From Phoronis australis (taxonomy: Eukaryota; Animalia; Phoronida): a stretch of 64,000 nucleotides of DNA. Made by a program: the position numbers and the translations under genes. The stretch's first letter is position 1. Each line of letters opens with the position of its first letter. Location of the stretch: the NCBI GenBank assembly GCA_002633005.1, contig NMRA01000019.1:272380-336379 (forward strand). The letters are read 5' to 3'. The notes under the pieces were generated by a model. The model did no database searches. It saw only the letters and a list, made by a program, of their open reading frames with translations, and was not told where the DNA came from. Below, piece by piece: positions 14,386-59,183 of the stretch.

Positions 14386-15599
14386 TCTCGTATACTGTTC
14401 AGTAGGCTCTACGCAACTGCTTACTTCCGAACCTGTTCGATTTGTCTCCCGCGTATGTTTCTCACCTGCCAGTGAGTTACCACTCATCACCACCGCACTG
14501 AGCAGAAAATACCTCGTTCGTGGGATTTCAGCTGGCGACTTTCCCCAAATAATGATAATGAAAAATCTCGTTCAAAAGAACTACTTGTATACATTCTAGA
14601 TACTAGACAAGCAGGCTTAGGCCTACATCAGTCACCTGAGAGGGTGTTTGGGCCAGGTGTGATGTGTAAAAAGATGCAACGTCAAAGTGAATCATACATA
14701 ATATAAATAACAATCAAGAAACCAGTAAAAACTGGAAACATCAGCTTAAGCAGTAAGAGATTATATTGGTTCCTAGCATCAGCCAAGTTAGCATATCTTG
14801 CGGGCGGCAGCGCAGCGCCGGGCACCGACTTGTTACCTTACTACCGATCAAGGCCGATAGATGGCACACGTGTACTGCGCGGTCCTGGTTTGTGGTTGTG
14901 ACTGTATCTATATTGTAGGTAGGACGGGTCTAGTCAATAGCTGTGCAAGTCAACTGAATGGAAAATCATGCATGGTTCTGGGCCGTGTTTAATGATTTGA
15001 GAATATGATATAGCAATGTGGCAGTTTTTAGTTGTGAGTCCTACAAAACGGATGACTTTGAGCTTACCTTAGATACGCTTGTGTACCTTATAGTCGTTAA
15101 AAGTGATGCGAACCGACGCTTTGTTTTATTTTTAACACTCAGTGACTCGTAGGCCGGGTGAGGCGCAGGCAATGACCTACATGTATTAGGCTATATTCTC
15201 TCAGTGGCTGGACTAAATTATTTTTAGTCAGGTTCTATTTTATGGACTTCCTCCTTGAGTCACCGTGACGGTGGTCTTAGTTAAAATTAGCCTGCAGACA
15301 AAATTCTTTAGTCACGAACGATGTTAAAACATCTTATTTCACCTCGTAACAACCTCCGAAACACCAGTAATGAGTACTTAATACAACACTTTCGAAAGGG
15401 CCCCGACCGCTCAATGCAGACACATTTTACTTCATAAGCCACTTACTCAGATACCCGGTCAAAGTTCACTCCAAAGTTGCAGTCGAAAAAAGCATAATGA
15501 CATTTATCTTTGGCCAGTATGCCCTATCCGTCTGTGGGACACCAAAAAAAAAAAAAAACTCGCAATGGTCATGCGACCAATTCTGTTAATAACAAGGTT

Positions 15600-15900
15600 T
15601 CGTTTTTCCAGTTTCCCGGCCCGACTCGTAAATTGTCTCTTTGTCGCCGAACTATATATATTTGACCGGTCTCGCGAAATGTCGATTTCTAGTTATTGAC
15701 AGTAGTTTATGAACCCGGCCCTCGGACTGACCGACTCGCGGGCGCAACTCAGAAGGTACACTGCGGTTAATTTATGGACGAGTCGGTTTCACCACCTGGT
15801 GCCTGTGAATTCAGGCGTGTTTCCGTGATGTGTGCCTCCTCCGTCGGCCGGAGTGCAGGTGCGTCAATCGCGTCGTTGATGAAAACACTGAGGCACTACT
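15600..15900 (+). promoter_or_regulatory. CpG-rich putative promoter/TSS region of the PNK-like gene
   Basis: Local CpG enrichment, a TCTCGCGA(A) motif at ~15670, ATG at 15774 and a donor CAG|GTGCGT after 15858. Confidence 0.4.
15774..15858 (+). CDS. Candidate first coding exon of PNK-like gene (MDESVSPPGACEFRRVSVMCASSVGRSA)
   Basis: ATG with an open frame to a phase-1 GTGCGT donor, phase-compatible with 16504-16574. No homology support. Confidence 0.3.
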
Positions 15901-16427
15901 CAGTGAGAATTCTATGGAGGGAGGTTTCACATGGACATTTCACATAAGCGGAGGAAGTACAGTCATAAAAAATAAGCATAAACCATGAAGTTGGCGGGAA
16001 AATCTAAATACATTCTACAAATTTGCACAAAAATTTTAGATCGGGTACTTAGGCCTAGCCTTTATACCTATAGTGACATCAAAGACGCTCTCTACGGTCT
16101 CTGGTGACATTACATATAGGCCGGCGTGCCATTGTACAAGTAACAAAGGTTACATTTTGTCCACGAGAGGGCGAAATACATAGTTTGTGCTCTTTAGTGG
16201 AAAAAGTACGTTAATCCGAACGTATTTTGCTTGTAAACTAAACCATGTAAGGCTGAAACTTGCTTTTTTGAACTTTCAAATCTGTCTCGGTAAATTATTG
16301 ATGCGGACTGTTTGTGTAATTGATTCCTATGTGGTACCATGACGCTGAATGGGAAAAGTATACCTGATTTGCAATACAAAACAGACATTCATTCAGATTA
16401 TACGCCGTGGCCGTCAGCTGGCCAGCC

Positions 16428-16462
16428 TGTCACTGTCACTGTCACTGTCAGTGTCAGTGACT
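16428..16462. repeat. (TGTCAC/TGTCAG)n microsatellite
   Basis: tgtcactgtcactgtcactgtcagtgtcagtgac. Confidence 0.8.
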
Positions 16463-16503
16463 GAGTCGAGAAGACTTCTTCCTTTGTCAATTTGATATCA
16501 TAG

Positions 16504-16574
16504 CGTCAGGCAGATCAACTACAAGACAAGAGGAGCAAAGATATTTCTGTCTGAAAATGCAAACTGGTGCTGCT
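16504..16574 (+). CDS. Candidate 5' exon of PNK-like gene (..SGRSTTRQEEQRYFCLKMQTGAA)
   Basis: Pyrimidine tract plus TAG acceptor and a perfect GTAAGT donor in phase 0. The start codon could instead be ATG 16557. Confidence 0.4.
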
Positions 16575-17399
16575 GTAAGTCCGTGTGAATGAATGTCTGT
16601 AACCTGTGTAACCATGGGCATGGAAGAGGAATTTGACAGGAGTCTTGTAGACTTTTCTGTAGTCATGCTGTGTGGAACAACATTTAGTGTAAGTAGCATT
16701 CAATGGAAATTATTTCCTGACTCAATTATTGTGTTCTGCTCGTTACGTCGTGAAAGTTGTATCAACATTTAGAGCGAACAGCCAGCGGTGATGCATGCAA
16801 AATATGGGAGTCAACCGACACTCACCTTGTTCGTTGCTGCTGTTTAATTGAAAGACAAGGTAATAAAATCATTTTCTCGAATAATGCTCCACATTTTTGT
16901 AACAAAGAAAAGATTATATTCATCATTTTAAAAACAGTACACTCATGTCACGCGCATTTCCTAATTTTTTGCACCAAGGCCATTATGAGGAGAGCTCAAG
17001 CTGAGCGATTTGGGAATATTCATGAATATTCATGACGAGGTTTGAACCTTTGCCCTTTGGGGGCACCTGATGATAAAAAGTGTGCTTTTTTTCTAAAAGT
17101 TGTGCCCAGCAGACTTAGTATAATTAAAGTGGTAACATATGAAACAGAAACCCCAATTAGGGCAATCGAAATAAGAACAGAGTCATGTTTTACCCAAGTG
17201 GCTGTAAGTTGACTAGAGCGTTACATTTTTGAAAGAGTGTTGTGGTTTTAAAAGATGCGCCCTGGGGGTGCAGTGCTGCAATGTACTGGTGCCTTTTTTA
17301 TGTGCTGATGGCACAAAGGCACAGTCCAGGAATATCCTTGCAATTGTTAATAGTTGATGATTCATCGTCATAACTCACTGATTCAGGTCCAATCCCCAG

Positions 17400-17438
17400 T
17401 TTGAGAATTTATTTGACCCATCAACCACTCCATATAAA
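17400..17438 (+). CDS. Candidate mini-exon supplying the first half of the P-loop (FENLFDPSTTPYK)
   Basis: CCCCAG acceptor, GTGCGT donor, phase 0-0. It would give TTPYK-GKT across a 64-nt intron. Speculative. Confidence 0.3.
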
Positions 17439-17502
17439 GTGCGTTTAAGATACTCGAAGTTTGGACAAATGCATGCAAGGCAACTTCTCTGTTGTGTTTT
17501 AG

Positions 17503-17634
17503 GGCAAGACTGCCATCTACAGAAAGCATTTCTCTGCCACTCATGAGCGCTTTTCAGCCACTGAACTGTTCAGTAAAATGCCCGAGTGTGGCCTCCATTA
17601 TGCTGCTGGGTGTGTCGTTCAGTTGTTACAAAAG
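17503..17634 (+). CDS. PNK-like gene exon: P-loop kinase (GKTAIYRKHFSATHERFSATELF...VVQLLQK)
   Basis: TTTTAG acceptor. GKT..Y.KHF..TH.R.S resembles the AAA_33/PNK kinase Walker A region. Ends at a GC-type donor AAG|GCAAGT; 44 codons. Confidence 0.85.
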
Positions 17635-18161
17635 GCAAGTTCAAGGTCATGTGGAACCTTATTGATGAAACTGTGCGTTTAGCCAAATATCTACAAACCC
17701 TGGAAATGTAAATTCTGTGAAACTCGCATAAGAGAGATTTATCCAAATGAGGCAAAATTTGACTCTTTTGAAAGATTGAGTACAGAGACTGGAACAACCA
17801 AACTGCGGAACTTACTTTAAGCAAAAATCTGACTTATGCCTGTCTGAATTCTGCAAATTTCGATGTTCATTCTGAAGGTAAAAATCCTATTGAATTTGAT
17901 TTTTTAAATTTGTACTAATCTACCATTATTTCTTAACAAGACCATGCTTTAAAGGCACTTTCGTTTTTTTTTCAATAAGTGATAGCTACTCGTGCCAAAG
18001 CAAAATATTCGTTTAAAAGTTCCTCACTGTTACGGAGAACAGAGCTTCATTTGAATTCGATTTGCCGTTTCTCAGATCAGAATTAAATCCTTCAAAGATT
18101 GGTTATGAATTTAACAAAAAGCATTTCAGTTTACATTTGGAGTCTCAGTAATAGTCACTCA

Positions 18162-18210
18162 GAGGGGTCCATTAGTAACTTACAGGGGTCTATTAGTAAC
18201 TTACAGGGGT
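18162..18210. repeat. 21-bp tandem repeat, ~2.4 copies
   Basis: AGGGGTC(C/T)ATTAGTAACTTAC repeated. Confidence 0.8.
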
Positions 18211-18424
18211 CTTGCATTGTGAAAACCAATTTTCTCCACTGAATAACCGGCATCAAACTGGTTGTCATAATGCGTGACCCTGTGTCTTTTGCCAAACTCT
18301 CTCCCCATTCTTTTATCTGCACGCCATTGTCCCCAAAGTAAATTCTAGAGTTTGTGAAATTCACAAGAATCATCATTTGTATTTCTATGACTTTTCATTG
18401 GGAATGGCAAGGTTTTACTTCCAG

Positions 18425-18502
18425 AATAAAAAGGTTGTCATCGACGATGATAATCTAAGTCGCCAAGTGCGTGAAGGTTACATCTTACAGATACAAAGTA
18501 AA
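18425..18502 (+). CDS. PNK-like gene exon: Walker B region (NKKVVIDDDNLSRQVREGYILQIQSK)
   Basis: TTCCAG/GTGAGT, phase 0-0. Parallels the PNKP kinase pattern hhIDNTN....R..Y. Confidence 0.87.
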
Positions 18503-19640
18503 GTGAGTATTTAGGTAAACCATTAAGCCCTGTCTACACCTGTAATAGTTCTGTAGCATTTCTGCAAAAAAACACGCAACATGTTTTGGCCTGTCCAAAC
18601 TTTTTCACAACTTCTAAGAACGTGTATTCAAATGTAACAGAAATAATGCAAGAAATTTGGAATCAGAAATAGTGAATGAAAAATGGACTGCAGGCACAGA
18701 AACCTCTGCATTGTTATTGGTGCAGGTGTTATAGTAGGAGCATTAATTAATTGAAAGAGAAAAAGAGGGAAAAATTCAGTAACCTCTTCTTTGTGAGTCT
18801 GTCTTAAGTTTGTACTCTTTTGTTGTTGTGTACAAGCTGGGACATTGCTCCCACATACAGTACCTGTGAGCTGTTCTGATGTTTTTTGTCCAATTGAAAA
18901 TCTGACAGCTCTATGGGGGCTACCATTCCACATTTGTCTCAACGGTCACATGACACAAAGTTTACTTCTGATAGGTCCAATCCTAAAATATGTTTCAGGA
19001 TGTTTCCAAAATATTGCTGCATATCACGCCACACAAAAGCATGCTGCAACAAGTTCATTTTCTAGTACTGGTGTCTTTACAACTGTTTCATAAAAGTTGC
19101 CCTGTGTAGACAGGCGTTTTTGACTTTGTTGAAACTTTCAAGTTAAACGAAGAAAATAATCAATGACCATCTAAATACTGTTATCTCTTGTCTAGCTAGA
19201 ATTTTTAAATTGTCTGTATACCCGGTTTTCGTTACATTTTTGTTTAGATCACAAACCGTTACGAAGTTGATTCAAAATTGTTTATTAGAGATTTTTGGTT
19301 TTACAAAACACTCACAGTTCATCACTGATTCATCAAGCATGTCATCAGGAATTAATATAAGACACTGTCAGTGTTTTGCAAGTCCAAAAATGACTTCTCT
19401 TCAGAGTAAAAAACAAGTTGAGAACAATTTATAGTTGTTATGGTCTAATAAAAGCAAGATTTAGTTTCTACGACAGATTGGGTTTATTGCCTCTTTAAAC
19501 TTTTTGATTTTAAAACCATGGTTATATATAGTTTTTGTCACTTATTATCAAATGCAAAGTGTCGAAAAGGTCGTATATTTATTCTTTGTCAAATATTTTT
19601 ATTTTGAAATTACCCAATTGCTATTGATACATTCATGTAG

Positions 19641-19794
19641 GTTCCTCACATCCAGATAGCCTGCTTAAAGGTCACGCCCCATTTGGGCGAGTCACAGATT
19701 CATTGGTCAGCACAGACCAGATTAGCTGAGAAGGTTCTTCGAGGCGAAGACAAAGCAACCACTGTTCACAGGAAGTGGTGGAATGCATCATTTG
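19641..19794 (+). CDS. PNK-like gene exon (VPHIQIACLKVTPHLGESQIHWSAQTRL...WWNASF)
   Basis: TGTAG/GTAATT, phase 0-1, open frame overlapping ORF 19683. Confidence 0.83.
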
Positions 19795-20728
19795 GTAATT
19801 CAGCCATGTTACGTGAACAGAACCCTCCCCTAGTTAACAATAAGAATTCACATATCTGTAGACACTTGGAAAATAATGCTGCTTATAGAGAGACAGCTGG
19901 GCAACACAGCGTTACGATTATTGACAATGATACTAATCGTGTATGTTTTACCACCGAAACATGTCCCTACATTTTATAAAAATTGTTGTCGTTATTCAAA
20001 CTTTTCTCGTGTTCGTCAGTGCGAGACCTTTTGATACTAATCGCTATTGCTTGAAACTGCATGAAGCCATTCACATTCAATACGCCCCTATGTTGAAAAT
20101 ATTCCATAAATACATTCAGTCGTGAGCAATATGTAGTTAGTGTCCATTCCTGTTACAAGCTATTAGTTGTTGCTTAGTGTAATGAATGTTCTGAATGGTT
20201 ACTGACAGTTCACTTTTTCAAAATTTCGTTGCAGAATGTTCGCTAGCGAAAGTTTCATTACGTCAAAGGGCCACTCACCAAAGACCCACTGTAATTCATA
20301 GTATATGTATTTTTGGTTAGGAGTAAAGAGGATTTGAGTGAAGTTTTAAAATAGTTCATCCAATTAGTTGTTATTGTATTGGAGGCTAGAGTGCATGTGC
20401 TACTGAACAATTGTTAGAAGTATGAACGCCTCAAACACAGTGTGTGGAAAACATTGTGTTATACAGTACTTGTGTACACAGTGGAGGAGAAAGCCCTACG
20501 ATAAAGTCACGCGATTTTCAGATGGCCCGCCATTTTGGGACATGAATAAATATTTCCGAAATAAATTTTTCATAGTCCACGAAATTCGTACAAGGTCCAA
20601 AAACTGTTTTTCAATGATCCTCGAATTTCGGTATAATATTTTGACTCACTTTCTTGGTGTATGTCTGAGGGTATAAGTTTCAGAAGTATGTTTGTCTGGT
20701 GAAGCCAATTTGTCTTCTCATTCTGTAG

Positions 20729-20805
20729 AGGAGCCTGATTCTGGTGATGGATTTGACAAAGTGTCTTCAGTTACCACCAGTTTGGAGTATTCGACACCTT
20801 ATAAG
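20729..20805 (+). CDS. PNK-like gene exon: end of kinase domain (EEPDSGDGFDKV...PYK)
   Basis: Strong pyrimidine tract plus TAG. The join gives FEEPDSGDGFDKV, matching the PNKP kinase C-terminal FExPxxxEGF motif. GTATTT donor. Confidence 0.8.
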
Positions 20806-22261
20806 GTATTTTGGAAAATTTTTCCTGTTTTCAATGCTTTTAAATACTCATATCAGTGCTCGGTGCTTAGCTTAATGCCAACTTGCCAAATTTGTCTTCC
20901 CGAAAATCCCAGGTCCCCAAATGAAATCTAAGGTTGCCAAAACTGACGTTGGAAGTCACCGACCAAAGAAAAGCTGTGCCGTTCTCAGCGTTATAAACAA
21001 ATTACACAAATTAAATCTTCTTCCATATCAAGTTTTCAAGTTGTCTTCCATACTTAGGACGTATGCACCGTTCAAACTCCTGCCAATGGAGAATGTGGAC
21101 GATTGAATACATTGGAGGCACGTGTTTCATGGTCCGACCTTGCCTGATTTTTGTTTCCGTCTATTTACTTCCTATTGTAATTTAAGCGCATTCGATTTGT
21201 GCTTATATCTGAGGGTAGCAGATTCCCCTATTTTCATGAAATAAATGGAACAATTGTGAACCACTGCTTATGTTAGCTTAGATTGGTTTGAAACACTTGT
21301 TTTGTGACTAAAATCGCTGAGTATCATTTTACATTTGGTTGTCTTGCACCATGCATTTCATATTTGCTAATGTTTTAAGTCACTGGTTTAGAGTCAGGAG
21401 GCTAGTATTTTCTGATTGTCTGCCAGCTCCTTAGGAAGGAAGGCTGTTATAGAGAAATTCTTATAAGCATCTTGGTAACATAGGATCGAGCTGTGTTGAA
21501 TTAAAAGTGCTTGTGCCCTGCTGTAATGGAATGAACTCTTCATAATGAATTTTTTATACTGAATGAAACCCACATGTGTTTTCTCCCTGTACACATTTGG
21601 AAAGATTTTGTAAGAATGATCCCCTGACTTGTTTTTCCTTTCCACAGTCTGAGTTGTGAACCAGCCAACTTTACCCACAACGCTGCATGAACTATGAAAT
21701 TGAAATTTTAATTCAGGGCCTAAGAATGTTTACTGTGTGAGGTGTGCAGTTTGGCAAAGCTGTTAATTAATCGGCGCGGAAAGTGGTTACATCACCCCTA
21801 GCAACTATTCCAAATATTGGAGACGAACAATACAGTGGTAGCCTGTTCACTGGCACACATTTGTTCAAACTGACAAAATTCAACAAAGCTAAGTTATTAA
21901 AATCTGAAGCTCATGCCACATCCTCTGTTAAACCATGTAACTTAGCATATTGACTTTTTTAACAATGAATAACTGGTGATTTTCCTGTTATAACATTTGC
22001 CCCAATGTAATTTCCTGCAGAGGTGTGGCAAGATGGTGTAATCAGGACTGCCTCAAGACAGTGGCACTTTCCCCCCTATTGCTGGGACCTTTTCAAATGC
22101 GCGTTCGTTAGTATACTGTCCTTTGTCCTCTGTGTTTGCTGCTAAGTTTTGGCGTAAATCAATAATTTGCTGTGATTAGTGTCAAAAAGAGTATTTAATC
22201 ACCAAAAAATCGATCAAGATGCCTTTAACATGTTTCTTGTGTACAACTGTCTCTTGTACAG

Positions 22262-22397
22262 TTTGAGGTGCCGTGTCTGTTTATGGAGTTTGCTGCCCTG
22301 CTTAATGAGGAAGGTCATCTGGCTACTGGTATTGTGGAGGCTCTCAGAACGTGGACCACTACATACCCCTATGGAAGGTTGTGTGTCATGCAGAAAG
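22262..22397 (+). CDS. PNK-like gene exon: degenerate HAD motif I/II (FEVPCLFMEFAALL...GIVEALRTW...GRLCVMQK)
   Basis: TACAG acceptor, GTCAGT donor, phase 0-1. GhVEALxxh...G.hhhh follows the HAD-IIIA pattern, but DxDGT is replaced by EFAAL. Confidence 0.83.
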
Positions 22398-22686
22398 GTC
22401 AGTTTTGATGTAACTTGGAAAAGTGTGTGAGCATTACTAGTTGCTGACAAAGCTTTGTGAAGCAAGGAGTAGTTTTAGTAATTAAAAATTTACTGTCAAG
22501 GAGAGCAAATAGTGTCATAATTGTGTACTTCGTGTCAAATTTTGTTTTTAATTTTTAACATTAAAATGATTTGTTCGAAAAGATAGCTTGTCACACAAAT
22601 AACACATCCAAAGATGCATGGATTAATCAAGCTTTTGTGGAAGTTATGGTGAAAATTTATTGTGAAGTGTTCACAAACAGCTTGCT

Positions 22687-22882
22687 CCTCTAAAACATAA
22701 CTTTAAGTATATTTTGTTCCTCTAAAACATAGTATACTTTGTTCCTCTAAAACATAACTTTAAGTATATTTTGTTCCTCTAAAACATAGTATACTTTGTT
22801 CCTCTAAAACATAACTTTAAGTATATTTATTTCTCTAAAACATAACTTTATGTGTACTTTGTTCTTCTAAAACATTAAGTGT
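22687..22882. repeat. Intronic minisatellite, alternating 32/25-bp units (CCTCTAAAACATA core), ~7 units
   Basis: Units start at 22687, 22719, 22744, 22776 and 22801, followed by degenerate copies. Confidence 0.9.
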
Positions 22883-23085
22883 ATTTGATTTGTAACACCA
22901 AGTTCAGACTGTTGTGGATCACATTCATTAGGGGCTGTTTACTAGTGTGCTTGGTTGCTGGCTAAATCGTGAAACCCAAGATAAACCTTTTCTCTCACTT
23001 ATCTATCTAGTGAATTGTCTTGCGTGTTCTCGTTGAACTCTCAAGGTAGAAGCCGTCTTTAACGCGCTAATGGTCTGTTTTTCAG

Positions 23086-23267
23086 TTGATGATGGTCTCA
23101 GTGAGGACCAGGTGGTGGCGCTTGTGAACCGTCTATCGACCCAAGTCCCTTCTACCCCGTTCTATCTTCTGCTGTCTAATCACGACAGGTGTCGTACGAA
23201 CATAGACCCATTAATGGCCGACATGATGCTTCTGCACAGACTCCACTTGTGTGACTTTCAGCATAAA
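23086..23267 (+). CDS. PNK-like gene exon (DDGLSEDQVVALVNRL...HDRCRTNIDPLMADMMLLHRLHLCDFQHK)
   Basis: TTTTCAG/GTGAGT, phase 1-0; lies inside ORF 23070. Confidence 0.87.
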
Positions 23268-24688
23268 GTGAGTAGAATAAAGATTTTTGTTTTCTAGCAG
23301 TCACATTTCAACATTGTTGTTAAAAAGTGTTATTATTATTTAGGTATGAGCAGACTTGTTTAAACATTCTCATTGAAAACTATTGCGTGCAAGCATTCAT
23401 GTTTCAATGTTCTCATTAAATACAAACAAAAAGAAAACAAAAAAAATGACCCATTATTCCGCGTCATGATGGCTGGGCGCAATTGGGATTTCATGCAATA
23501 GAGGTTGCATAAAAATTGAATTGAGTGTCATAGTAGTCATCTGTCAAGACGGCTCATTTAACAGAAAGCTAACAATAAAAATGTAAAAGCTCTTCGCTCT
23601 TCCTATAGTTTGGACGTAATCATGAACAAACTTGATATTTTTAAACTGATGCACCGCACGATAAACATAGATGACCATTACACTATAACTCGATCATCTG
23701 TTGCAAAATAACTACACGTGAATTAATCGTTTAGTAAGAGTGGTCGTGCTTGCAAAATGCACAACCACATTAAAGTGTTCGTGAGGACAATCCAGACCTC
23801 TACAGACATGTGTTGATCCTACGCATGTCCTTTTTGAATTGGTTGCCAGGATTGTGCGAGATTGTTCGAGATAATGATTTTGCGATGACAGAGTTGTAGA
23901 TTCAGGCATTGTTTATATACTGTGGTTGAACATTTGCTAAGAGCTGTCTACAAACACAAAACTTTAAGTGATCGAAAGGTATTGCAGTAAAATGTTCACG
24001 GCTGTCACTGCGGCATCAAAAATCTTTAGTACTATGGCAATACACAGTTATGAATGATGATTATAATCATATTGTTTACATCATGTCGCTAATTGCGCTG
24101 TACACGTGAACATTGGAAATTAGGTCAACGTTCTTGGTTAGTCTTTCACAATGTGCGGACCATTGTGTGTTAAGAGATTACGGCTGTTATGATGCATCAT
24201 TTCAGCGAAATTAAGTGGAAAAAATTTACAAGTGGAATTGACTGTCATGACAAGGAAACAATAGTCTGGTCAGCACACCATCTGTTGGCCACGTCATGTG
24301 ACTTAATGAATTTAAGTCTATGGCAGAAATCTTAACGTATTCGTTAGGTCGCGTGATGTGGCCAACAGCTGCCGTGCTGACCAGACTTAAAAATGTTTGC
24401 AATACGGTTTGTGTTGACTTATTATACTTTGCTGTACTCTTTGTATTGGTTAAGACTTCACCTAGTGTCAGTGGAGACTTAGCGGAAATTCCGTCAGGAA
24501 CTTGACAACGGCACCTCCTCATAACGTGGAGTTGACCTCATGACCCCACAGATCTGAATGTTTGTTTAACCACAAAAGCCACTGACCACTTTTTGTGACC
24601 ATTTGGTGAACTGAAAATTCTGTTAAGCTTCATAATTCGATCTGTTCTTATCTAGCGGTAAACATGCTTATGCTTTCGTTTTTTTCAG

Positions 24689-24790
24689 GGTTCGCTGTAT
24701 TGTGGTACACTTACAGACAGTAATCATGTTCTGAAGTCCTGTGCATTAAAATGTCTCAAAGCAAAATTGTTGCTCAAGGATCCCACTGTG
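24689..24790 (+). CDS. PNK-like gene exon: degenerate HAD motif IV (GSLYCGTLTDS...KDPTV)
   Basis: T-rich CAG acceptor, GTAAGA donor, phase 0-0. SLYCGT corresponds to ShhVGD. Confidence 0.8.
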
Positions 24791-25459
24791 GTAAGATTTC
24801 GTCATCCAAACTGATTTTCCTTGATTTGAAACTTTGCTCTCAACATACAGACAGTATGTTGCCTGGACTGTGTAGAATAGACCCACAACTCTTGCAAAAC
24901 ATTTGCTGCTCGAGATCTTTGCTTATGGAAGGAAAACAGTGAATCCTATCCCATAAGTCAACATTGCAACCTAACCATCTATTCACTTCTTCTGTGGCCA
25001 CCATTTTGCAAGGGTACGCTACTAAGCTCCCAATTATACTCACGAAGCACTTGCCTTTCATTTGCGTGATTTTGCGTTGTCTTACTTTTTCACAAGGCTC
25101 TCGGCTCTGCACAATGCAGTCCTGGTAATAGCACCCCTTTGAGCCTGATTAAATGTACTTTTGCCCTTTTTCTTCGAAAATGGAATGCTCCCATCCACTC
25201 TTCTTAGTCAGCATTCTGTCCCCCTTTTGACTAGAAGTGCTTGGACAGGGAAAGGGCACAGGCAGATTTTTAGATCAAATTAGTGCATCTTTACCTCAAA
25301 ACCTGCTGGAGTATTAACAAAAGGTACATGGATATGGTTTAACAAGATGGCTGCTTGATATGGATTTTCTGCTCCAACTTCTATTGTGATAGAAGCTATG
25401 TAATCTCTGCTTTAACCTTGGTGCATTTCTCGTCGTGTCCACCATGACATTTCAATAAG

Positions 25460-25522
25460 TCTTGGACGCAAGTGAATGGTAAACATGAAGAATGTGCTTT
25501 AGAAAGTGCAATCTGCCAGACG
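25460..25522 (+). CDS. PNK-like gene probable exon (SWTQVNGKHEECALESAICQT)
   Basis: Perfect GTAAGT donor in phase 0. The AAG acceptor is weak, so the 5' boundary is uncertain. Confidence 0.55.
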
Positions 25523-25659
25523 GTAAGTCTGTTGGCCATTTATGGACATTCATACACCTTGCTGATTCACCCAAGTGAATCTGCCTATCATTTATTTTAC
25601 AAATATTTTGCACAATCTGTGATTTCACTTAGTTTATTTTATGATTACTGTACTTTCAG

Positions 25660-25859
25660 ATCACCAGCATTGGTCAGCCCTGTGATGTGACACTGCCCGA
25701 CGTTTTAAGATATGTTGTATTTACAAGTGGAGATGATGATCTATTACCCACAATTCCGTTCTTCTCTCGTGTAACTCCCTGCAATCTTGTCTTCCAATGC
25801 ACTGTTGATCAGTACCGTCGGATCTTCTTGATATGCTCATCTTATCAGAGTCTTGAAAG
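25660..25859 (+). CDS. PNK-like gene exon (ITSIGQPCDVTLPDVLRYVVF...SYQSLER)
   Basis: TTTCAG/GTATTC, phase 0-2, compatible with the next exon. Confidence 0.75.
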
Positions 25860-26889
25860 GTATTCTGTGCCTTAAATGTTTTGTTTCATTTTGTAGGATA
25901 CTGTCCTGCTATGTTTTAGAACTTTGCACTCAAATAGTTGCACTCCATGAAACATTCTCTGCTAAAAATATGTAGCACGGTAAAGATGTGTCTATATCTG
26001 GAGTGTGTATAGTGAACCTTAGCAGTTCATTCTTGGTCAAGGCCATACTCTACACAGTAGCTTACCATTCAGGTCAAGCCAGCGTATTGAGCCTGGTCTT
26101 GAACAATAACTGACTGCCAGTATGGATCATAGACAACAGATTCGCAACTCCGATATTTTCTTGCGAAATATGCTAGAGAAGGCCCCACCCTCTATACACA
26201 GCAAACACGCCTTCTGGTTGGTGTATTGTGACGGCAAATACTTGCTTCTATTTTACTGTCCAGTACAACAAAAAAAAAATTTCGGTATTGAAATGCTGTT
26301 CAAAGTCTTCCAATAGTAGAACTCTTGATATAGTGAATACTTTTGGCAATGCTACCAGACCACCAGACGTACTTGGCGGAAGTGAAATGTGCTATGCATG
26401 CCAGGTGTTGCTAGAGAATAGTGATGTCATGGCTTAGGTGCAAGATCACAGATTTCGTCCTTTGAAAATATACCGAGTTGGCAGTCCATGTACTATATTC
26501 TTTGGTGTCAGCTCTTTCCAAGTTGAGCCCAGTTTCATTACTGTGTATAAGGGTTCTCAATCAAAAGTCATTTCTGACAGAATGTCAGTCCATGGCAGTT
26601 TTCAACTCACAGAGGAAGGTTTTGTAAACCTACAGTCGCTGTCCATGAAGCAGTGGCTGCTAAAACATCTTGTATCAGTTGTGTTTATATTTGAAGACCG
26701 TGTTGTGTCGTGCATTTTTAACAATTCCTTTCGAAATTGCTGTTGGTGACCTGAGTAAAGACCCTGCATGGAGTTTTAAATGTTTTCATGTTTATATACT
26801 CAATGAAATGTTGTTGTATCAGAAGTATCTTCTAATAGGCATTACATTTGTCTGGTAAATAAAGTTGTTGTATTGTTTCTGTATTTTAG

Positions 26890-27591
26890 GTATAATGCTC
26901 TGTACGCGTCCAGCTGCAGTAAACATAATGAACCCAGCAAGTTTGCGCAGACATGTGGAGCCATGCGAACAACATTACCTGCCTCTAGAAATGCTGGTGC
27001 TAGAAAGCGTCTTCCAACTTGGATGTTACCTGTTAGTGAAAGACCAGAGCATCAGGAAAATAGTAAAAAAACAAGAGCCAAAAACCAAGAATCAAGTCGA
27101 ACGAGCAGTGACAGTGATCTTAAGAGGAAAGAAGAGACTGCAAAACGTTCTAAGACTGGTGCTAAATATGAAGGTTTACCAAAGAACAGGATTGTTCGAG
27201 TGCACAAACGTCGCCGTGTTCAAAGACTTGAGTTTGTTAGTTCAGACTCAGACTCAGGATCAAAATTTGATGATTTCAACAAAACCATGCATCAGATGTC
27301 AACAAAGTCGAAACGGTTTGAGAAAGACAATCACAAAGTTCAAAGTGAAACAACAATGGACAGTGCATCAGACTTGTCCTATAATTCAGACGATGACATC
27401 CAGTTAATTGTGGGCAAATCACCAGTATACACAAAAGCTGGTTACAAGAAATTTTCGTCAAAACACACCGATTTGCAAACTTCATCTGAGGTCCCGAATA
27501 GCTCTGGCCCCTGTTCATCTACACCACCTAGTGTCCTGGATGATATGTTTTGTGAACGAGTGAAAAAACGACCTCCTCCAAAGAAACAAAG
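26890..27591 (+). CDS. PNK-like gene large exon: disordered K/R/S-rich tail with RKRLPTWML motif
   Basis: TTTTAG acceptor, phase 2-2, within ORF 26873-27682 (the longest ORF in the window). Donor AG|GTCTGT. Confidence 0.87.
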
Positions 27592-27980
27592 GTCTGTGTA
27601 CTTAGGTCACAACACTGTTAAGTTCATCAGTTCTTATAAAATCAAATTTATGGTACAAATGAATGCAGTGAGAGCTTACTGACTGCCGTGGTAAATATTC
27701 TTCAATTTGGCACAATGAAAATTTAATGAGTTTGCTAAAGGTTGGAGTTGGTGCCAAATTCTTGTAGAAATGTACAATATTGACTATTCCAAATTCAAGA
27801 ATCACTGGAAGGACGACAAAATTACCCGCTCTGTAGATTAAAAATACATTTTTCGAAATTTGAGAAATATGGTGAATGCCAAAATTGCCCTTGTCCCAAA
27901 TTCTATAAGCAAGGGTTTCCTTATCCCAAATTCTAGATACTAGCCAAGTTGCGGAATTATTACCCCATTTTCAATGGTAT

Positions 27981-28110
27981 TTAAGGTTATGTAGGCCCCC
28001 TGTGGATAAGCCTGTGCATTAAGCTAAATATTTGCAACTCTATAGCATTGAACTCATGAAGAGGTTATTTTTTCTGAAAGCAGAAAGCCTGTAGAATTTG
28101 ATTTATGGCT
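27981..28110 (+). repeat. Dispersed repeat end (TTAAGGTTATGTAGGCC...), related copy at ~30367-30495
   Basis: Both copies start TTAA(G/A)GTTATGTAGGCC and share AGAAAG(C/T)CTGTAGA. TTAA-RR termini recall Kolobok-type elements. Confidence 0.4.
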
Positions 28111-28655
28111 TTAGTCCGATCTTCCGTTGATTGGGTCTGGTGACCACATCGTTTTAGTCAAATTTAGCAAAATGGTACAGTTATAGCAAAGTAATGGCAA
28201 CAATACAATTACTAAATTTCGCTTGATATAAGTATTCCAAAACACAATTAAATATTTCTAATTTGTCTTTTTGGTTTCGTTTTATGCAAATTTTATTTTG
28301 TTAATAATACTCCTCTTTGGTAGTCTCTTGTGCAAAAGTGGCGCATTTCAAAAACAATATTCTAACAGGGTTTTGGGGAACATTGCGTTGAGTAGAGTAT
28401 CTGAAAATTTCATGTAAATCCGATCACTCATTTCTGAAATATGATGTTCTGAAGTTGCCTCGTGTGTACATTTTTCAAGGGTCCTACACTTGTCTTCCAC
28501 TCTCAACTTAACTGCAAAACTTAGATGTTTCACCAATTAAGGTCATCAGTGTGGGTTAAGAATGTGTTTGCTATGATTGTGTCTAATTCAATATTCATTT
28601 GGAATTGAGAGATAACTTGAGATTGAATTTTTGGAAGCAGTGGCCTGCCCTATAA

Positions 28656-30184
28656 TTTTTATGCGCCCACATATTTATATGTGGACGCATTATGCCGTCA
28701 TCTCTGTCCGTCCGTCCGTCCGGGCGGCGTCCGTCCGGCGTCCGGCGTCCGCTGCTCTATCTCCAAAACCCTTTGACATACGTTCATGAAATTTGGCACA
28801 TATGTTCCGTTCATGAATGGGACGGCATGTGCGAACTTTCGGACGGATCCGACTACCGGTGTGCCCCCTTGTGGCAATTTTAGTTTTTTACGCTTACCTT
28901 TGTATCTTCAAAAGTCCTGAACGGATTTTCATGAAATTCGGTATGTAGGCACCTAGTAGTGAGATGACGCTATCCTGCCATTTTCGGATGGATTCGACAT
29001 AGTTTGCGCCACCTAGTGGCCATTTTTAGTGTTTTCGAGTCTGTTTTTGTGCTTCCACCCCTCTATCAACCAAACCGCTCAAAGGATGATTGTGAAAATT
29101 GGCATGTATGTGCTTACTATGTAGAGGACGGTTGACGATGATTTTCCGACGATTTCGACTACTGTGGCGCCTCCTAGTGGCAGTTTTGTTTTTTTTGCGC
29201 CTATGGCTGTATCTCCTAAACCGTTCGCAGGATCTTTACAAATTGTGTAAGTATATTTATATGATGTTAACAACGGAAGATGACGACTTTTGGTCGGATC
29301 CGACTACCGGTGTGCCCCCTAGTGGCAATTTTAGTTTTTTACGCTTACCTTTGTATCTTCAAAAGTATTGAACGGATTTTCATGAAATTTGGTATGTAGG
29401 CACCTATTAGTGAGATGACGCTATCCTACTGTTTTCAGATGGATTCGACGTAGTTTGCGCCACCTAGTGGCCATTTTTACTGTTTTCGAGTCTGTATTTT
29501 TGCGTCCACCCCTCTATCAACCAAACCGCTCAAAGGATGATTGTGAAAATTGGCGTGTATGTGCTTACTATAAGGAAGACAGCTGACAATGATTTTCAGA
29601 CGATTTGGACTACTGTGGCGCCTCCTAGTGGCAGTTTTGTTTTTTTGCGCCCATGGCTGTATCTCCCAAACCGTTTGCAGGATCTTTACTAAATTTAGCA
29701 AGTGTATTTATGTGATGTTGACAACGGACGATGACGACTTTAGGATGATTCTGATTACCGGTATGCCTCTAGTGGCAATTTTAGTATTTGCCTCTAGTGG
29801 CAATTTTAGTATTTTACATTGACCTCTGTATTTTCATAGGTCTTCAGGTGTATACTTTGTGTTACTTCGTGACTGTGAAGGAAAAGTTCCAAGTAGAAAT
29901 TTGTTTCTGGCATTCTAATGCTGTGCTAATCTCGTATGTTGGTAAATTTGTTTTTAATTCTATGTTTCTGTGGTGCTTTAAGCAACTGGTGTATAGGATG
30001 TGCTTGTATTATGAAGATTACTCACATTTTGCCCCTAGCCTATTGAGGAGACAATGACCATGCCTTTCCATTTTGCAAAGTATGCCTTCTACTGGCCACT
30101 TTATGGTACCAATAAACAACCCTAGAAGGATACCGTATGCGGTGCAATTGTGGGCGCATTTCAACGCTCTGCGTTGCTCTTGTT
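28656..30184 (+). mobile_element. Helentron-associated non-autonomous element (HINE/DINE-1-like), copy 1, with internal 451-bp tandem repeats
   Basis: T-run and subterminal IR ATGCGCCCAC (28661) / GTGGGCGCAT (30150), 5' hairpin 28661-28690, (GTCC)n microsatellite, internal tandem array, 3' hairpin CAACGC-TCT-GCGTTG then CTCTTGTT. A second copy is at 52.5-54.2 kb. Confidence 0.8.
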
Positions 30185-30955
30185 ATTTTTTTTTAAGTTT
30201 TAAATGCTATTTAATTGTTCTTAATGGCAACAGCAATAATATCTAATCATGGTAAGAAACATTTCGAGATGGATCTAGTTGGGTTAAATGGCCAAGGCTT
30301 CGTTTTGTTTTTCAAAAGGTTCAACACATGAAACAAATGCAGTTTTAAGTTTATCTGCCATTTGGTTTAAAGTTATGTAGGCCTTTATTGAGAGTCTGTG
30401 TATTTAGCAAAATACATGCAAAATTATGGAAATCAATGATATTAACTCAATAAAGGTACATACATTCTGAGTGGAGAAAGTCTGTAGACTCTGGACATTT
30501 TTCTAGACTCCTGCATAACATTGAAAAGGGAAATGTGTGCAATATCTTCTTTGAGGCGAGTAATGGTTTACTTGAGTTTACTCTGTGCATTATTTCTTTG
30601 GCTAGGGAAATTTACTCTCTATGTGTTTAAATTCTGTTTAAAATGTGCTGTAGTTTACTCACATTGGTTGATTTCAGTAACTGTCTATTTGTAAGCTGGG
30701 ATTATGACTGCCACTGTAAATGTTACTGTTTCTGTTAGGTTAGAAATAAAAAAATGGAACCAATGAATACTTTGGCCATGCTGTGAAACTGGTGACTCAT
30801 TTCATATGTTGTTTGCAAAATCTGCTCCAGCTGAGTTAAATTAGAGTGGGAATGTTCCGAAAAGCAGCTTTTAAAATAACTGCCCTCTGACTTGTCAAGG
30901 CAAAGTTGGAGTATATTCAGCTCACAAATTCTATTGCAAGGTATCAATTTTGCAG

Positions 30956-31214
30956 GGTCGTTGCAACAGACGTATCATCTGTCCTTGACCTTGGTAAGAC
31001 CCCATCTCCACCTTCATGTTCTTGGACAGGTGGAGGAAAGAAGACCATTGAAACAGACCATTCTCATGGCTCCAACAGTCTCTTGGACTTAGACTCCGAA
31101 GACAGTGACTATGGCTCTGGGTTTGGTGCTAGTGGGAAAATTGTTTCCCCAGAAAATGAGAAAAAGCGACAACAAGCACTGGAGGCGCTGCGTGCTTTGG
31201 ATGAAATATTTTGA
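30956..31214 (+). CDS. PNK-like gene terminal exon (VVATDVSSVLDL...ALEALRALDEIF*)
   Basis: TTTTGCAG acceptor in phase 2 matches the previous exon. Stop at 31212-31214, AATAAA at 31274. Confidence 0.82.
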
Positions 31215-54160: not shown

Positions 54161-54500
54161 ACCCAAGGGGTTCGCATGTATCTAAAGTTCTTTGGCGTAT
54201 TTTCAAAAAAATTGGTTATTCGTTGTGTATTACCCTGTTACCGCACATTTAGGCTCATGGGCCTATATCGGAAATAATGCCTTTATTCGCGGGATTTTTT
54301 TTCCCAAGTGGTTCGCATATTGGCCCATGTGCCTAAGTTTCGCGTATAATCCCAGTTCCGCCCAGACGCCTATGATCCTAATGGCGCGGCAATACTGCAT
54401 ATAATTATCTGTATTGAATCAAATGATTTACACGTGGTAAAAAGTCATTCAACGAGCAAAAGCGAGTTGACAAAATGCTAATCATGAGCCTCGTTTTCAG

Positions 54501-54707
54501 GAACTAGATGATTTGGAGGATCGATATGGTGAAATATGGGACCCCAAGTTGATAATCCTGAACATGGACCAGGCCCCGAGAACGAATGAGATCACATACG
54601 ATATTGAGTACGGACCTGATGGAATTCCAGTTGTCTATTACAGAAGAAAAATTAGAGGTTCCTTCTTTGAGAGACTAGAGCTTAGACATTTCCCGTTTGA
54701 CGTTCAG
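54501..54707 (+). CDS. pLGIC exon: loop A to Pro-loop (IWDPKLIILN...IRGSFFERLELRHFPFDVQ)
   Basis: TTTTCAG/GTAACT, phase 0-0; WxP loop A and the FPFDxQ signature. Confidence 0.95.
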
Positions 54708-55296
54708 GTAACTTGTGCCTCAACAGCAATGCTCTTTTGAATAAGGAATCAAAATGAACTACCATCTAACGGCAATGCAGTGCTGAACCCGTTGCTATCA
54801 ATGACAAAAAAGTAATATTTTAATTGAATCGGTCCAGATCATACCCATAACCGCCGTGTATGTATAGGATAGGTATTTGGTTCCATGTGGTATCTCGTAC
54901 AATGCTCAGACGCCTTGATTCTTGAATTCGATGGATTTCGTTGAACAGAGGTGTTCGATTGCCTGAGCTTCCTGCCAATCCCGGCCGCAGTCATTGTCAC
55001 CTAGCTGTATCTGCAAAAAATAGTTAAGCACTTCTCTTTTGAAATCGTATTTGCATTTGTGGAAAATAGTTGAATAGCAGCAATCGATGGTGTCTTGACA
55101 CTAAACCCCCGTATTCAGTGGTATGAGTTACAACAAAAGAAACTGAAGAGTTTTAAGCACAATTTACAGAGCCATCTTCAGATTTTTTTTTATTAAATTT
55201 GCATCTCACAATGAAGTACCGTAATTGTCTTTCCTGGTCATCTTGATGTATCTTGCCGATGCCGTTGTCATCATCGTTCCCTTTCTTCGCCTGCAG

Positions 55297-55437
55297 GAGC
55301 TGTCGCTTCATATCGTCTCGGATCATCCTGCAAAACAAGTGTCGCTGGAACTCTGCCCGGATAATAAAAGTACTGTCCACACCCATACCTTCAGGGACGT
55401 CGACGAATGGACTTTGTTCCAATCCGTCAAGGAAAAC
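55297..55437 (+). CDS. pLGIC exon (ELSLHIVSDH...FRDVDEWTLFQSVKEN)
   Basis: CTGCAG acceptor and conserved EW. The 3' donor is uncertain (GTGATT after 55437 or GTGATA after 55461). Confidence 0.8.
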
Positions 55438-56520
55438 GTGATTGTTTTTCGTACTACAACTGTGATAATTGGGATAAACGCATTACTCTCGGCGGTGTTC
55501 CTACTGATCTCGAATGCTTTCGATTATATTTCTCTACTTAAGCCTACATTTCTAGTTACATTTATGTTCAAATCTCAAAACTGATGAAAGATTGCGTGTT
55601 TCTGTGATTTTGTTGCCATCTTTCAGACTGATGCGATGATAAGACGTGCTAGTATCACAAGACGCTCCCCTAAAAAGATAACTGAAATCAAGTCATTAAG
55701 TAAAATTTTTAGACGGTTTTAAAAATATCCGTTATTTCAACGTCTTTTTTAAAAGTTTGGCAATAAATATGTCTATAAATCTTAACTGAGCTCAAGAGAT
55801 TTTTAAATTTTCAGAAGCTACAAAACCACTTTACGTCACAAAAACATTTTTTATTAAGATCAGTTACCTATGAAATTAGTCTCAAAGAGTTCCCTAGTCA
55901 AAATAGGTAGGAATTTTGGGCTTTTACAGAACTTACAGTTCGTTATTGCTTTAGACAATGCTTTACAAGACTTGTTACGCGTTTTATATCGTCCGCCAGC
56001 GAGCATGATTTCTTGCAGTAAAACAATGTCAGCTCGTTGCAAGACCAAACGCCACCTTCCGCTTGAGTGAGAAATACGTTGAGAACAATTTTATAGAGCT
56101 ACGTAATGTAAATCAAGAGTTAATTTCTCCGACGGATCGCGGGTTTATTGCTTGGAGAAAAATACGTTTCGTCTAATTGCTATTGTATTATGATTCATGC
56201 TATACGTTTTTCTAACAAGACAAAAAATAAGAGACTACTTACTGAAATCGGTAGCTCACTGAAGTTCTCTTTTTAATCTTATTGATCTATCTTCTACGAA
56301 TGCGGCTTCTTGATGTCCAATGTTTTTTTCTCTGGATGCGGATTCCCCCCGATTTTTTCTCGTTCTACCAGAATTCTCCGTAATTTTGCCCGAATGGTGG
56401 GACTGGAGGCTTGGTAAATGCTACCCCGCCTCCCACCGCCTATTAATACGTCTGTGACTATACTCATCTCCTATCAGGTATGGGATAAACCTCATCACGC
56501 TGAATTTATTGTCCCAACAG

Positions 56521-56730
56521 GTTAAACCCCATGCCAGTGACTTTGGTTCAGACTCTGACGGCAATATCGAAGACAGAAGGGGTCACTTTCCCGTGGAGAA
56601 ATTGGGAGAAGGGTCGCAATCCATGATCGACATGAGCCGGGCGACGAGGATAAGGAAAAACCGACTCATTTTCAGCTGTTTTGTGGCCAGAAATTATGGA
56701 TATTGGATTTTCAACGTCTTCACGATTTTG
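56521..56730 (+). CDS. pLGIC exon: extended loop C, beta10, start of M1 (...LIFSCFVARNYGYWIFNVFTIL)
   Basis: CAACAG/GTGAGA, phase 0-0; pre-M1 R..GY...N motif. Confidence 0.85.
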
Positions 56731-58833
56731 GTGAGACATATTTAACGATTGCACTTTGTTGTTGATGTAATCTGAGTTTCCTTGTGTGTTTTCATAACAG
56801 GGATAAATTGGACGTTAGGGTAAGGATTAGTCATGTGCTTGCAAAATTTGGGTTCACTACATAGTTGGATATTATGTCGGGACATCATTCTCAATGTATT
56901 TCGGTGATGAGTCATGTTTATTATAGTTGTGCGTTTTGCTGAAGAGTTGGATTCAAGCTCTCAATCTATAGATCTATGGCTCGTCGACGATTTTGCATAC
57001 GACTCTTGTGTGGAATTCATAAGCTGTGTTTTGGGTGTAACAAAAGCCCTGGCAACAATTTCCACTCCAATGATAATGCACATTCTGCCAAACAAGATCC
57101 CAGTTCTGAGTTCCATCCATATCATATCACTTGGCGAGAAATTAGAGGTTGGCAAATTCTAGTTTGAAATAAAAAAAATCCCGTTTATTTTGCAAAACAT
57201 GTGCTGATCATTTCACGTTGAATGCTAAACATTTGTTACATATAAAGTAAAAAAATAAAACAGTTTTGCTGCTGTTATTTTTCTCCTCGTTATTGTAATC
57301 TAAAACCATGACTACCTATAGGGGGAGCTCATCTCACCTCGACAGGAAGGAGGGGTGGATTAGGAGTTCGTCACAGATGACCGGAAGCAATGTTGTTGAC
57401 AAATGGATGGACAGGCCCGACGCTGATGGCGATCGGGGCCAGGGTCGAAATTATTTTTTTTGCATTTCTGTTCCACTTTCGTGCGAACGTCAAGATCAGC
57501 GGCTTAATTATAGTCTGTGTCCGAGTACTTTATGTTTTATGCATTTTAATATCTAGTCTTTACTTGATGACCTATATTAGAATTACAAACTCGAGTAAAA
57601 ACTCGAAATTTCGAGTAAAAACTCGAACTTTTAGCCTCAATACTGGGGTCATCAAGGACAAACTAGGATTAGACAACTGTCCACGTAAGCCACTGTGCGT
57701 GCAAGCATAGAGTAATAGCCAATTGTCTTGAATAAAAATTCCAAAAATAATTTGGAGTTTGATTTCTATCAAAACTATAAGACTCCATCCTCTGGAAACG
57801 CAGCCGCGAAATTGGGAACCGTGAGAGGGGGTGACTCTCATGGCAACGGAGGTGGGGCGGTACCTTCAGCCTCGGGCCGTGATATGGCTAGCTATGCCAC
57901 TGGCCAAAACAAGAATGGATAATCAAGCTTTGATGGTCCTCGTTGTTGTCGTTTGTGTCGAATTGTGCCACTTATTACTCACGTCAGTCTGTAAAGCAAT
58001 ACGACGTGTGCTTACAGTATTTACAGACAGGTTACATTTGTCTAGTAAGTACTTTCCTGCTCCGCTGTAAAAATCAGTGTCCGATTAAGGAATTGCGAGG
58101 CATAAGTCGAAGCGCGGGGCCCCTTATTCAAATACTGATACAACGATTATCTAACAGTTAAAACAAAATAGGTGTAATTTTCATTTTTGAGGAGTGAAGC
58201 AATTGAGACGACTTTTGATGAGACAGTGTGTTGTGTCCACTGGGCACCGTCAGCTGTTGGTCGAAGTGGACGATTTCAGGATAATTCACACGCCGCTTAT
58301 CAGAGGCCCAGCGTTTGTGCCAATTATGGTATCAAGAAGGCTACCTTTGTCAAATATATACATTTTGAATTTTGAAATTTTTGTCGCTCTGTATGTTAAC
58401 AAAACTGTAAACTCAAGAATGGGGTTAAAAAACTCAAACAATGCCTGGCGCCTTAGTGAGTTTCTGCTCTTGTAGGTGCCCGAGGTTTTTTGGTTGCAAG
58501 CTTTAGCATTGAGCATAAGACTACGACATCTACAATTCTTTGAACAACGCTAGCACAGTGGGGTCTCGCACCCTTGCCCCTTCACATATTGAGAAGAGCG
58601 GGGCCACAACACAACGTTTCCAAATCGCGTCGTCACCTGAATAATGTATACCTCCGTCTACGTATTGATGCCTCTAAAAGCGTGCTGTGAGCGCAGTTCC
58701 ATAAAAGTGTTGTTCCGTAGCATATGTTAGTTCTGCTACGTTGTTAATCTGACACTGGCACAGCTGGCAAGTGCTAATTATTTTAATTATGTCTGTTATT
58801 CAATAACCGTGACACGTTTTTCTATGTTTTCAG

Positions 58834-58989
58834 CTCCTGATCAACTGCCTCACGTTCACCCCGTTTGCCTTCCTGCATACACAGACCAGCGCCAGACTTG
58901 GCGTGATGATGTCGCTACTGCTGACCACTGTCGCCAAAAAGATGGCGCTTGGAATGATGCTTCCGCCTATATCATACCTGACTTATCTG
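58834..58989 (+). CDS. pLGIC exon: M1-M2 and M2-M3 loop (LLINCLTF...SARLGVMMSLLLTTVAKKMALGMMLPPISYLTYL)
   Basis: TTTTCAG/GTGAGA, phase 0-0; R0', L9'T10' and LPxxSYxTxLD. The frame differs from ORF 58809. Confidence 0.95.
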
Positions 58990-59183
58990 GTGAGAAAATG
59001 TTGCAACATTGTTTGGTACTTCGTGAACAATGTGTTTATTAAATCTAGAATTTCTTAACCACTGTAAATTGTATAAGACAGCTTCACCGTTGGCGGTGTT
59101 GGGCCGATATATAAATTCAGCCTATATTTCGCCAAAGTGCCCTCTTGTACGCACAATACACTACAATCAATAGAAACACGTGT

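Follow-up and report, generated by a model that had tools for sequence, protein, structure and literature searches.

A spliced and expressed gene of the phoronid Phoronis australis encodes a protein in which a PNKP-type polynucleotide kinase domain is followed by a likely HAD fold and by a long tail with candidate Ku-binding motifs. The gene lies on the + strand of a 64,000-nucleotide stretch (GenBank assembly GCA_002633005.1, contig NMRA01000019.1, positions 272,380 to 336,379 of the forward strand; hereafter the window, to which all coordinates refer), where its coding exons run from 16614 to 31214. An earlier sequence-only reading had implied an end-healing enzyme; however, key catalytic residues are missing from both domains (Thr45 in the kinase; degenerate HAD motifs), and the likely role therefore shifts to that of an adaptor. 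Judged from its sequence, the protein has about an even chance of being a double pseudo-enzyme, a non-catalytic adaptor brought to DNA double-strand breaks by Ku.

Gene structure and expression

Spliced by their coordinates, the exons give a single open frame of 2,097 bases on the + strand, divided into 11 coding exons and encoding 698 residues. Nine introns are of the GT-AG type and one is GC-AG (17635-18424), the GC donor at 17635 being used by RNA reads; a GT donor at 17646 was rejected in its place, as it breaks the frame and the reads take the GC donor. Three stranded raw-read runs of the same species label were mapped on the locus. Eight of the ten introns are crossed by 7-14 reads each over the three runs, always with the first mate on the - strand, as a + transcript requires; intron 19795-20728 is crossed by only 2+2 reads. 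For intron 27592-30955, no joint was present among the matches listed (15 joints), which are dominated by a transcribed repeat inside the same intron. The attachment of exon 11 to exon 10 is supported by frame, splice signals and depth, the depth of exon 11 being strand-specific (4.1, 3.4 and 2.5 per bin) and similar to that of exon 10. The RNA joints and the shared strand therefore place the kinase, the second domain and the tail with its candidate Ku-binding motif (KBM) on one transcript. The gene is real, spliced and expressed, and RNA supports nine of its ten introns, one of them weakly.

The sequence-only reading had proposed one spliced, intron-rich gene, starting at 15774, with eleven exons over 17503-31214 and a product of 694 residues. 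Frame and RNA joints agree with a single intron-rich gene, and the junction check by RNA reads did not split the exons between genes. Ten exons within 17503-31214 are indeed phase-consistent; however, the first coding exon is 16614-16688 and the product has 698 residues. The start at 15774 was rejected, since RNA depth is zero over 15402-16035 in the three runs and the evident donor is in phase 1, whereas the acceptor at 17503 needs phase 0. An alternative upstream in-frame ATG at 16593 would give a product of 705 residues. A 12-base insertion at 16532 was seen in 4 of 6 reads of run X3; it is upstream of the start codon, so this stretch lies within the transcript leader.

The kinase domain and its relatives

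The kinase part is spread over five exons. Exon 1 (16614..16688, residues 1-25) holds the start codon, the first kinase strand and the GxxxS half of the P-loop, and 7 reads join it to exon 2 (16688>17503). Exon 2 (17503..17634, residues 26-69; GC donor, 7 reads at the joint) carries the P-loop GKT and Thr45 (17560-17562), which occupies the position of the general-base Asp. Asp76, within a DNTN-type motif that here reads DDDN, and Arg85 are in exon 3 (18425..18502, residues 70-95; 9 reads), while the lid region and a conserved Arg122 are in exon 4 (19641..19794, residues 96-146; 2+2 reads at the downstream joint). Exon 5 (20729..20805, residues 147-172; 13 reads) contains the E.P...GF motif that closes PNKP-type kinases, together with the linker to the second domain.

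Searches with single exons against Pfam (11 exons), NCBIfam (5 exons), PDB sequences (6 stretches) and plasmids gave nothing useful, nor did exon 7 in the Atlas (best 0.82). Relatives were therefore collected and profiles were built from them. Scanning 185,579 prokaryote genomes for a DNA pattern returned 69 loci, 46 of which are kinase-then-HAD fusions, mostly myxobacterial, and a viral scan returned 42 loci comprising giant-virus proteins with the domain order of PNKP and single-domain kinases. Further searches contributed 120 PNKP-order proteins out of 850, 78 standalone bacterial kinases (80 loci), nine viral fusions (16 loci) and five eukaryotic PNKPs.

Residues 13-166 scored 51.1 bits against a mixed PNKP-type profile of 74 sequences, the best of 1,001 shuffles reaching 8.9. 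The other profiles gave 42.4 bits (viral kinases), 30.1 (120 PNKP-order proteins), 24.4 (standalone kinases), 21.5-24.1 (fusions) and 15.6 (five eukaryotic PNKPs). In contrast, a T4-type profile of 22 proteins gave 3.6 bits, shuffles giving 3.4, and archaeal AAA_33-like kinases gave 3.7. By these comparisons residues 13-166 are a PNKP-type kinase domain, far above chance, though identity to any single relative is at most 23%. The high PNKP-type scores and the low T4 and archaeal scores therefore identify a PNKP-subfamily kinase that is T4-like in order only. The kinase motifs quoted by the sequence-only reading are present in the exons, and its distinction from canonical PNKP holds: the kinase comes first (from residue 13), there is no FHA domain, and the first exon is supported by RNA. 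Its term "T4-type" fits the kinase-then-HAD order and does not fit the sequence, for which PNKP-type, standalone and myxobacterial-fusion profiles give 21-51 bits. A KTI12/PSTK reading was also rejected, on 3.7 and 0.6 bits; here archaeal AAA_33-like kinases served only as a proxy, true eukaryotic KTI12 being outside the comparison.

In T4 Pnk the essential residues are Lys15, Ser16, Asp35 (the putative general base), Arg38, Asp85 and Arg126, and the Arg38 equivalent is missing in mammalian PNKP, as stated in PMC2831316. The phoronid protein retains the equivalents of Lys15, Ser16, Asp85 and Arg126 and lacks that of Arg38. Lys27, Thr28 (Thr for Ser), Asp76, Arg85, Arg122, Pro149 and Gly154 fall in columns conserved in 86-100% of 281 relatives. 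The general-base column, which is Asp in 98% of these relatives and Thr in none, holds Thr45; in addition, DNTN is altered to DDDN, and the Glu of EGF is replaced by Asp. Such retention of the donor side with loss of the acceptor-activating side would correspond to the usual pattern of a nucleotide-binding pseudokinase.

The second domain and the ordered segment

The HAD-like part begins in exon 6 (22262..22397, residues 173-217; 10 reads at the joint), which carries degenerate motifs I and II. It continues through exon 7 (23086..23267, residues 218-278; 7 reads), with the motif III region, and exon 8 (24689..24790, residues 279-312; 14 reads), where motif IV reads GT for GD. With hhalign, residues 173-310 aligned to 66 HAD-IIIA domains with a score of 31.0 (P 2.6e-4) and with motifs II-IV in order; none of 148 shuffles (best 21.0) and none of 105 natural decoys (best 24.6) reached this score. 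Against the whole fusions, the hhalign match (96%, owed to the kinase) stayed colinear to about residue 310. Between the kinase GF and motif I lies a linker of 25 residues, versus 21-24 in all 55 of 55 fusions. A HAD fold in residues 173-310 is rated as likely.

As the nucleophile, the first Asp of HAD motif I is indispensable in T4 (PMC3592404). Here Glu181 and Ala183 stand for DxD, the NQ is missing, Thr255 replaces the Lys of motif III and Thr285 the Asp of motif IV. These motifs are intact in 177-178 of 178 relatives (motif III Lys in 177, motif IV Asp in 178), where motif I, plus motif III in the bacterial set, had been selection criteria. All four motifs being degenerate, the domain is catalytically dead if the HAD fold holds.

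Exon 9 (25660..25859, residues 313-378; 8 reads) encodes an ordered segment. An ordered stretch had been proposed here at about 90 residues; by composition it covers about 80 (313-395). An AlphaFold model of exon 9 alone had a mean predicted local distance difference test score of 49.7 and was unusable. A NYN/PIN reading of the SGDDD stretch (residues 335-339, 25726-25740), which recalls SGDxDF, was rejected: the match covered only 18 columns, and 1 of 169 shuffles scored higher.

The tail and its candidate Ku-type motifs

Residues 396-698 are polar with few hydrophobic residues, in agreement with the proposed disordered tail of about 300 residues. Exon 10 (26890..27591, residues 379-612; strand-specific RNA depth) contains basic clusters that resemble nuclear localization signals. 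Exon 11 (30956..31214, residues 613-698 and the stop; strand-specific depth) is followed by AATAAA about 60 bases past the stop.

Motifs of the type used in non-homologous end joining (NHEJ) had been proposed for this tail, and two candidates were found at the level of pattern. The first, RKRLPTWML (27002..27028, + strand, residues 417-425), is an APLF-type KBM candidate. It has a basic patch followed by Pro-X-Trp in a disordered region, like the Ku80-binding peptides of PMC4831024, and is near-identical in pattern to the WRN-cA peptide ERKRRLPVWF given there. Met directly follows Trp423; a Met after the Trp is described as the high-affinity residue in APLF and most MRI, with about 30-fold higher affinity in MRI (bioRxiv 10.64898/2026.07.22.740027). 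The second candidate, LRALDEIF (31188..31211, + strand), forms the last eight residues. It resembles the XLF-like motif LKYVREIFFS of MRI/CYREN, which likewise stands at the C terminus (MRI-X peptide VLKYVREIFFS in PMC4831024). MRI/CYREN is a disordered NHEJ adaptor (bioRxiv 10.64898/2026.07.22.740027; review PMC8533500). Out of 100,000 shuffled versions of the protein, 63 showed the extended KBM pattern and 3,751 the loose core; the loose terminal pattern turned up in 19, and the two loose patterns co-occurred in a single one.

Proposed function and alternatives

If the protein is an adaptor at double-strand breaks, the basic clusters would provide nuclear import. The Ku80 vWA domain would be the docking site of the internal motif, as it is for APLF, WRN and MRI; MRI is also the model for the C-terminal motif, which would touch the Ku/DNA-PK complex at a second point. 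A nucleotide may still be bound by the kinase fold (Lys27, Thr28, Asp76 and Arg122 are kept), and possibly a 5' end, without phosphorylation, and the dead HAD domain might be a structural or 3'-end-binding module. Ends would then be tethered, shielded or sorted, not healed.

Several points weigh against this adaptor. With no orthologue found, the motifs and the residue losses are seen in a single sequence. Allelic differences in the RNA runs include at least six replacement and at least four silent changes in residues 1-395 (at least two and at least one, respectively, in the tail), a balance that hints at little constraint, though the changes are too few to measure it. With hmmsearch, four HAD profiles gave 0.6, -1.0, 1.2 and 2.9 bits for residues 173-310, none significant; the hhalign probability of a HAD match was 31-43% (43% against the 66 HAD-IIIA domains), and a HAD profile of fusions only gave P 0.3. 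The HAD-IIIA-like domain of the sequence-only reading stands as a second ordered domain with moderate support for its class. In the tail, the candidate KBM departs from the strict core R-X-X-P-X-W, with Lys at P-3 and Arg at P-2 and P-4, and according to PMC4831024 the core is present in more than 600 human proteins. LRALDEIF lacks the basic patch and the final F-S, a Pfam scan of exons 10 and 11 separately gave no MRI match, and the motif patterns were defined post hoc, with the sequence already in view.

Alternatively, only the HAD domain may be dead. The kinase could then remain active by taking Glu46 or the substrate itself as its base, or by acting on an acceptor that bears a phosphate or is a small molecule, and the protein would be an enzyme that Ku recruits to modify ends; we consider this unlikely. 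Such a reading would account for the retention of all nucleotide-donor residues and of the terminal E.P...GF motif, which needs explaining, and the S-A-T-E-L stretch recalls nucleoside-monophosphate kinases, which presumably need no general base. However, Glu46 aligns one position past the catalytic Asp, where active fusions have Glu too, and a Thr at the Asp position is without parallel among the 281 relatives; the DDDN change adds to this, and Asp35 is essential in T4 (PMC2831316). It is similarly unlikely that the tail motifs are coincidental or vestigial and that the role lies outside end joining, for example as a nuclear pseudo-enzyme binding nucleotides or RNA ends. Loose KBM cores are common, both in the shuffles and among human proteins (PMC4831024), and the kinase relatives include RNA-repair-type fusions such as P0123, with its Hen1-like domain; against this, two distinct Ku-type motifs occur in the arrangement of MRI, one KBM inside the chain and one motif at its very C-terminal end, in a protein from an end-repair family. 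That the gene is decaying, lineage-restricted and without current function appears very improbable. The very long branch, the catalytic losses, the missing orthologues and the many replacement alleles would fit decay, whereas the 2,097-base frame stays open over 11 exons, splicing is correct in three RNA runs, and the nucleotide-binding residues are selectively retained.

The adaptor reading can be extended to a long, ancestral-type MRI/CYREN, a proposal that we regard as distinctly unlikely. The N terminus of this Ku-tethered adaptor would derive from a prokaryotic kinase-phosphatase fusion that was domesticated into a double pseudo-enzyme; it would read or shield DNA ends still bearing an unhealed 5'-OH or 3'-phosphate. 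In vertebrate MRI the folded part would have been lost and only the tail kept.

Taken singly, the parts of the phoronid protein are all of familiar kinds; what was not found described is their combination, with the order reversed, catalytic residues lost from both domains and tethers of the MRI type in the tail. No description of such a gene or of an invertebrate MRI was found in the searched literature, which left most subscription journals outside its scope. To our knowledge, factors tethered to Ku come in two kinds, active enzymes (WRN, APLF) and bare disordered adaptors (MRI, the PAXX tail). A dead polynucleotide kinase-phosphatase at Ku would, if true, add a third kind, in which an end-healing enzyme has been turned into a sensor or shield of ends, and would suggest an origin for the MRI/CYREN motif pair that can be put to the test. 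At present, there is one well-supported gene model with an inferred role.

Comparison with known systems

Eukaryotic PNKP has the order FHA, HAD-IIIA 3'-phosphatase, 5'-kinase (e.g. fish P0169-P0171 and mouse structures 1YJ5 and 3ZVL). The phoronid protein shares with it and with the giant-virus PNKP-order proteins the kinase subfamily (15.6 bits for the five eukaryotic, 30-42 for the viral PNKP-order profiles), a HAD-IIIA-like second domain and a likely nuclear DNA-repair setting. In contrast to PNKP, it has no FHA domain, the order is reversed, the general-base Asp and DxDxT are absent, there is a long C-terminal tail with Ku-type motifs, and no shared intron positions were found.

The AAA_33 plus HAD-IIIA (PNK3P) fusions of myxobacteria, planctomycetes and phages (L023-L091, L214-L222) resemble it in order, colinearity and linker length; however, all their catalytic motifs are intact, their lid insert is longer, and they have neither introns nor the tail. 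Five fusions scanned against Pfam showed AAA_33 and PNK3P, preceded in three by an aldo/keto reductase; these three are myxobacterial-type, with motifs intact and a PNK3P-like HAD (L047:2077-4875, L032:117-3293, L049:1146-3032). In nine viral contigs (L214-L222) the kinase-HAD-IIIA fusion stands alone, as a phage type of Pnkp that differs from T4 PseT. P0123 is a standalone-type bacterial kinase fused to methyltransferase and Hen1-like domains, which hints at RNA repair for the subfamily. Three fusion genes are on contigs labelled as Klebsiella, Enterobacterales and Nitrososphaera metagenome bins (L063, L032 and L066, respectively); the sequences of L063 and L032 look myxobacterial, so these two may have been mis-binned.

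T4 Pnkp (PseT) has the same kinase-then-HAD order and belongs to the same superfamilies. It differs in its kinase sequence (3.6 bits), in its phosphatase, which is Pfam HAD_PNKP and not PNK3P, and in being an active tRNA-repair enzyme. At the level of pattern, MRI/CYREN (C7orf49) is alike: it too combines disorder with an APLF-type motif, and its C terminus ends in an XLF-like one. Human MRI, however, is 157 residues long, lacks any folded domain resembling an enzyme and has its KBM at the N-terminal end. The candidate KBM here has Lys at the canonical Arg position, and no profile match links the motifs of the two proteins.

Possible origins

Three limited searches found no orthologue. By word index, none of six candidates scored with exon 9; a phmmer search with exon 9 against 1.84 billion representatives gave one match, a repeat-rich protein of 1,593 residues with nine stretches, judged to be chance; and a profile that combined exons 2, 3 and 5 with one bacterial kinase gave 50 matches among 5,491 candidates, none extending beyond the kinase. 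The queries were short, which makes these results weak evidence of absence; the database does include fish and fungal PNKP.

For tree building, about 290 rows were thinned by hand to 67 and 46. In the quick tree (67 rows) the kinase fell in a polytomy of PNKP-order proteins and fusions, and in the careful tree (46 rows) it was nested among myxobacterial fusions on a branch of 3.97. Approximately unbiased (AU) tests rejected none of the sister groups tried: fish PNKP (p 0.68, with a likelihood above that of the free tree), T4 (0.47) and standalone kinases (0.45). The trees cannot tell horizontal transfer from PNKP rearrangement. The proposal of a separate family, ancient or horizontally acquired, is not shown by these searches and tests. 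Order and linker speak for the fusions, scores and lid length for the PNKP-order proteins. The P-loop intron lies 2 nt from what we take to be the position of human PNKP c.1126, a near miss that is within chance. None of four kinase introns coincides with the human PNKP introns c.1188, c.1298, c.1386 and c.1448, hand-mapped from the variant names in PMC12641809.

Two origins were weighed on this basis. Horizontal transfer may have supplied the core, as a kinase-HAD fusion of a prokaryote or phage that then gained introns, lost catalysis and acquired the tail; we regard this as a real possibility somewhat short of an even chance. The same order, the colinearity over about 300 residues, the linker length and the nesting in the careful tree point this way, as do the kinase introns, none shared with the four human positions (PMC12641809). 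Against transfer, the end branch measures 3.6-4.0 changes per column, the quick tree places the kinase outside the fusions, and grouping with fish PNKP has the higher likelihood; furthermore, PNKP-order and standalone kinases give better pairwise and profile scores than the fusions do, and the lid insert of about 12 residues of the fusions is missing here. If a prokaryotic origin held, a transferred repair gene would have been absorbed into animal end joining. With a slightly lower probability, the gene may be a duplicate or retrocopy of eukaryotic PNKP that lost FHA, had its domains reordered and decayed to a pseudo-enzyme. This is compatible with the AU test and the PNKP-like lid length, and the HAD-like part aligns better to profiles that include PNKP-order proteins than to fusions alone. 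PNKP already acts in end joining. However, such a history requires a domain swap that happens to yield a fusion-like linker length, no shared intron positions were found, and the profile of five true eukaryotic PNKPs, at only 15.6 bits, misses the HAD.

Other features of the window

A repeat with internal duplications occupies 28655-30184 in the last intron. Reads 90-99% alike, mostly of one strand, reach a depth above 1,000 there; copies elsewhere are therefore abundantly transcribed. A short tandem repeat array lies at 22690-22880, in the intron after exon 6. Further downstream, exons of a neighbouring + strand gene (54471-61978) show a weak match, below the cut-off (E 0.002), to the ligand-binding domain of Cys-loop/neurotransmitter-gated ion channels.

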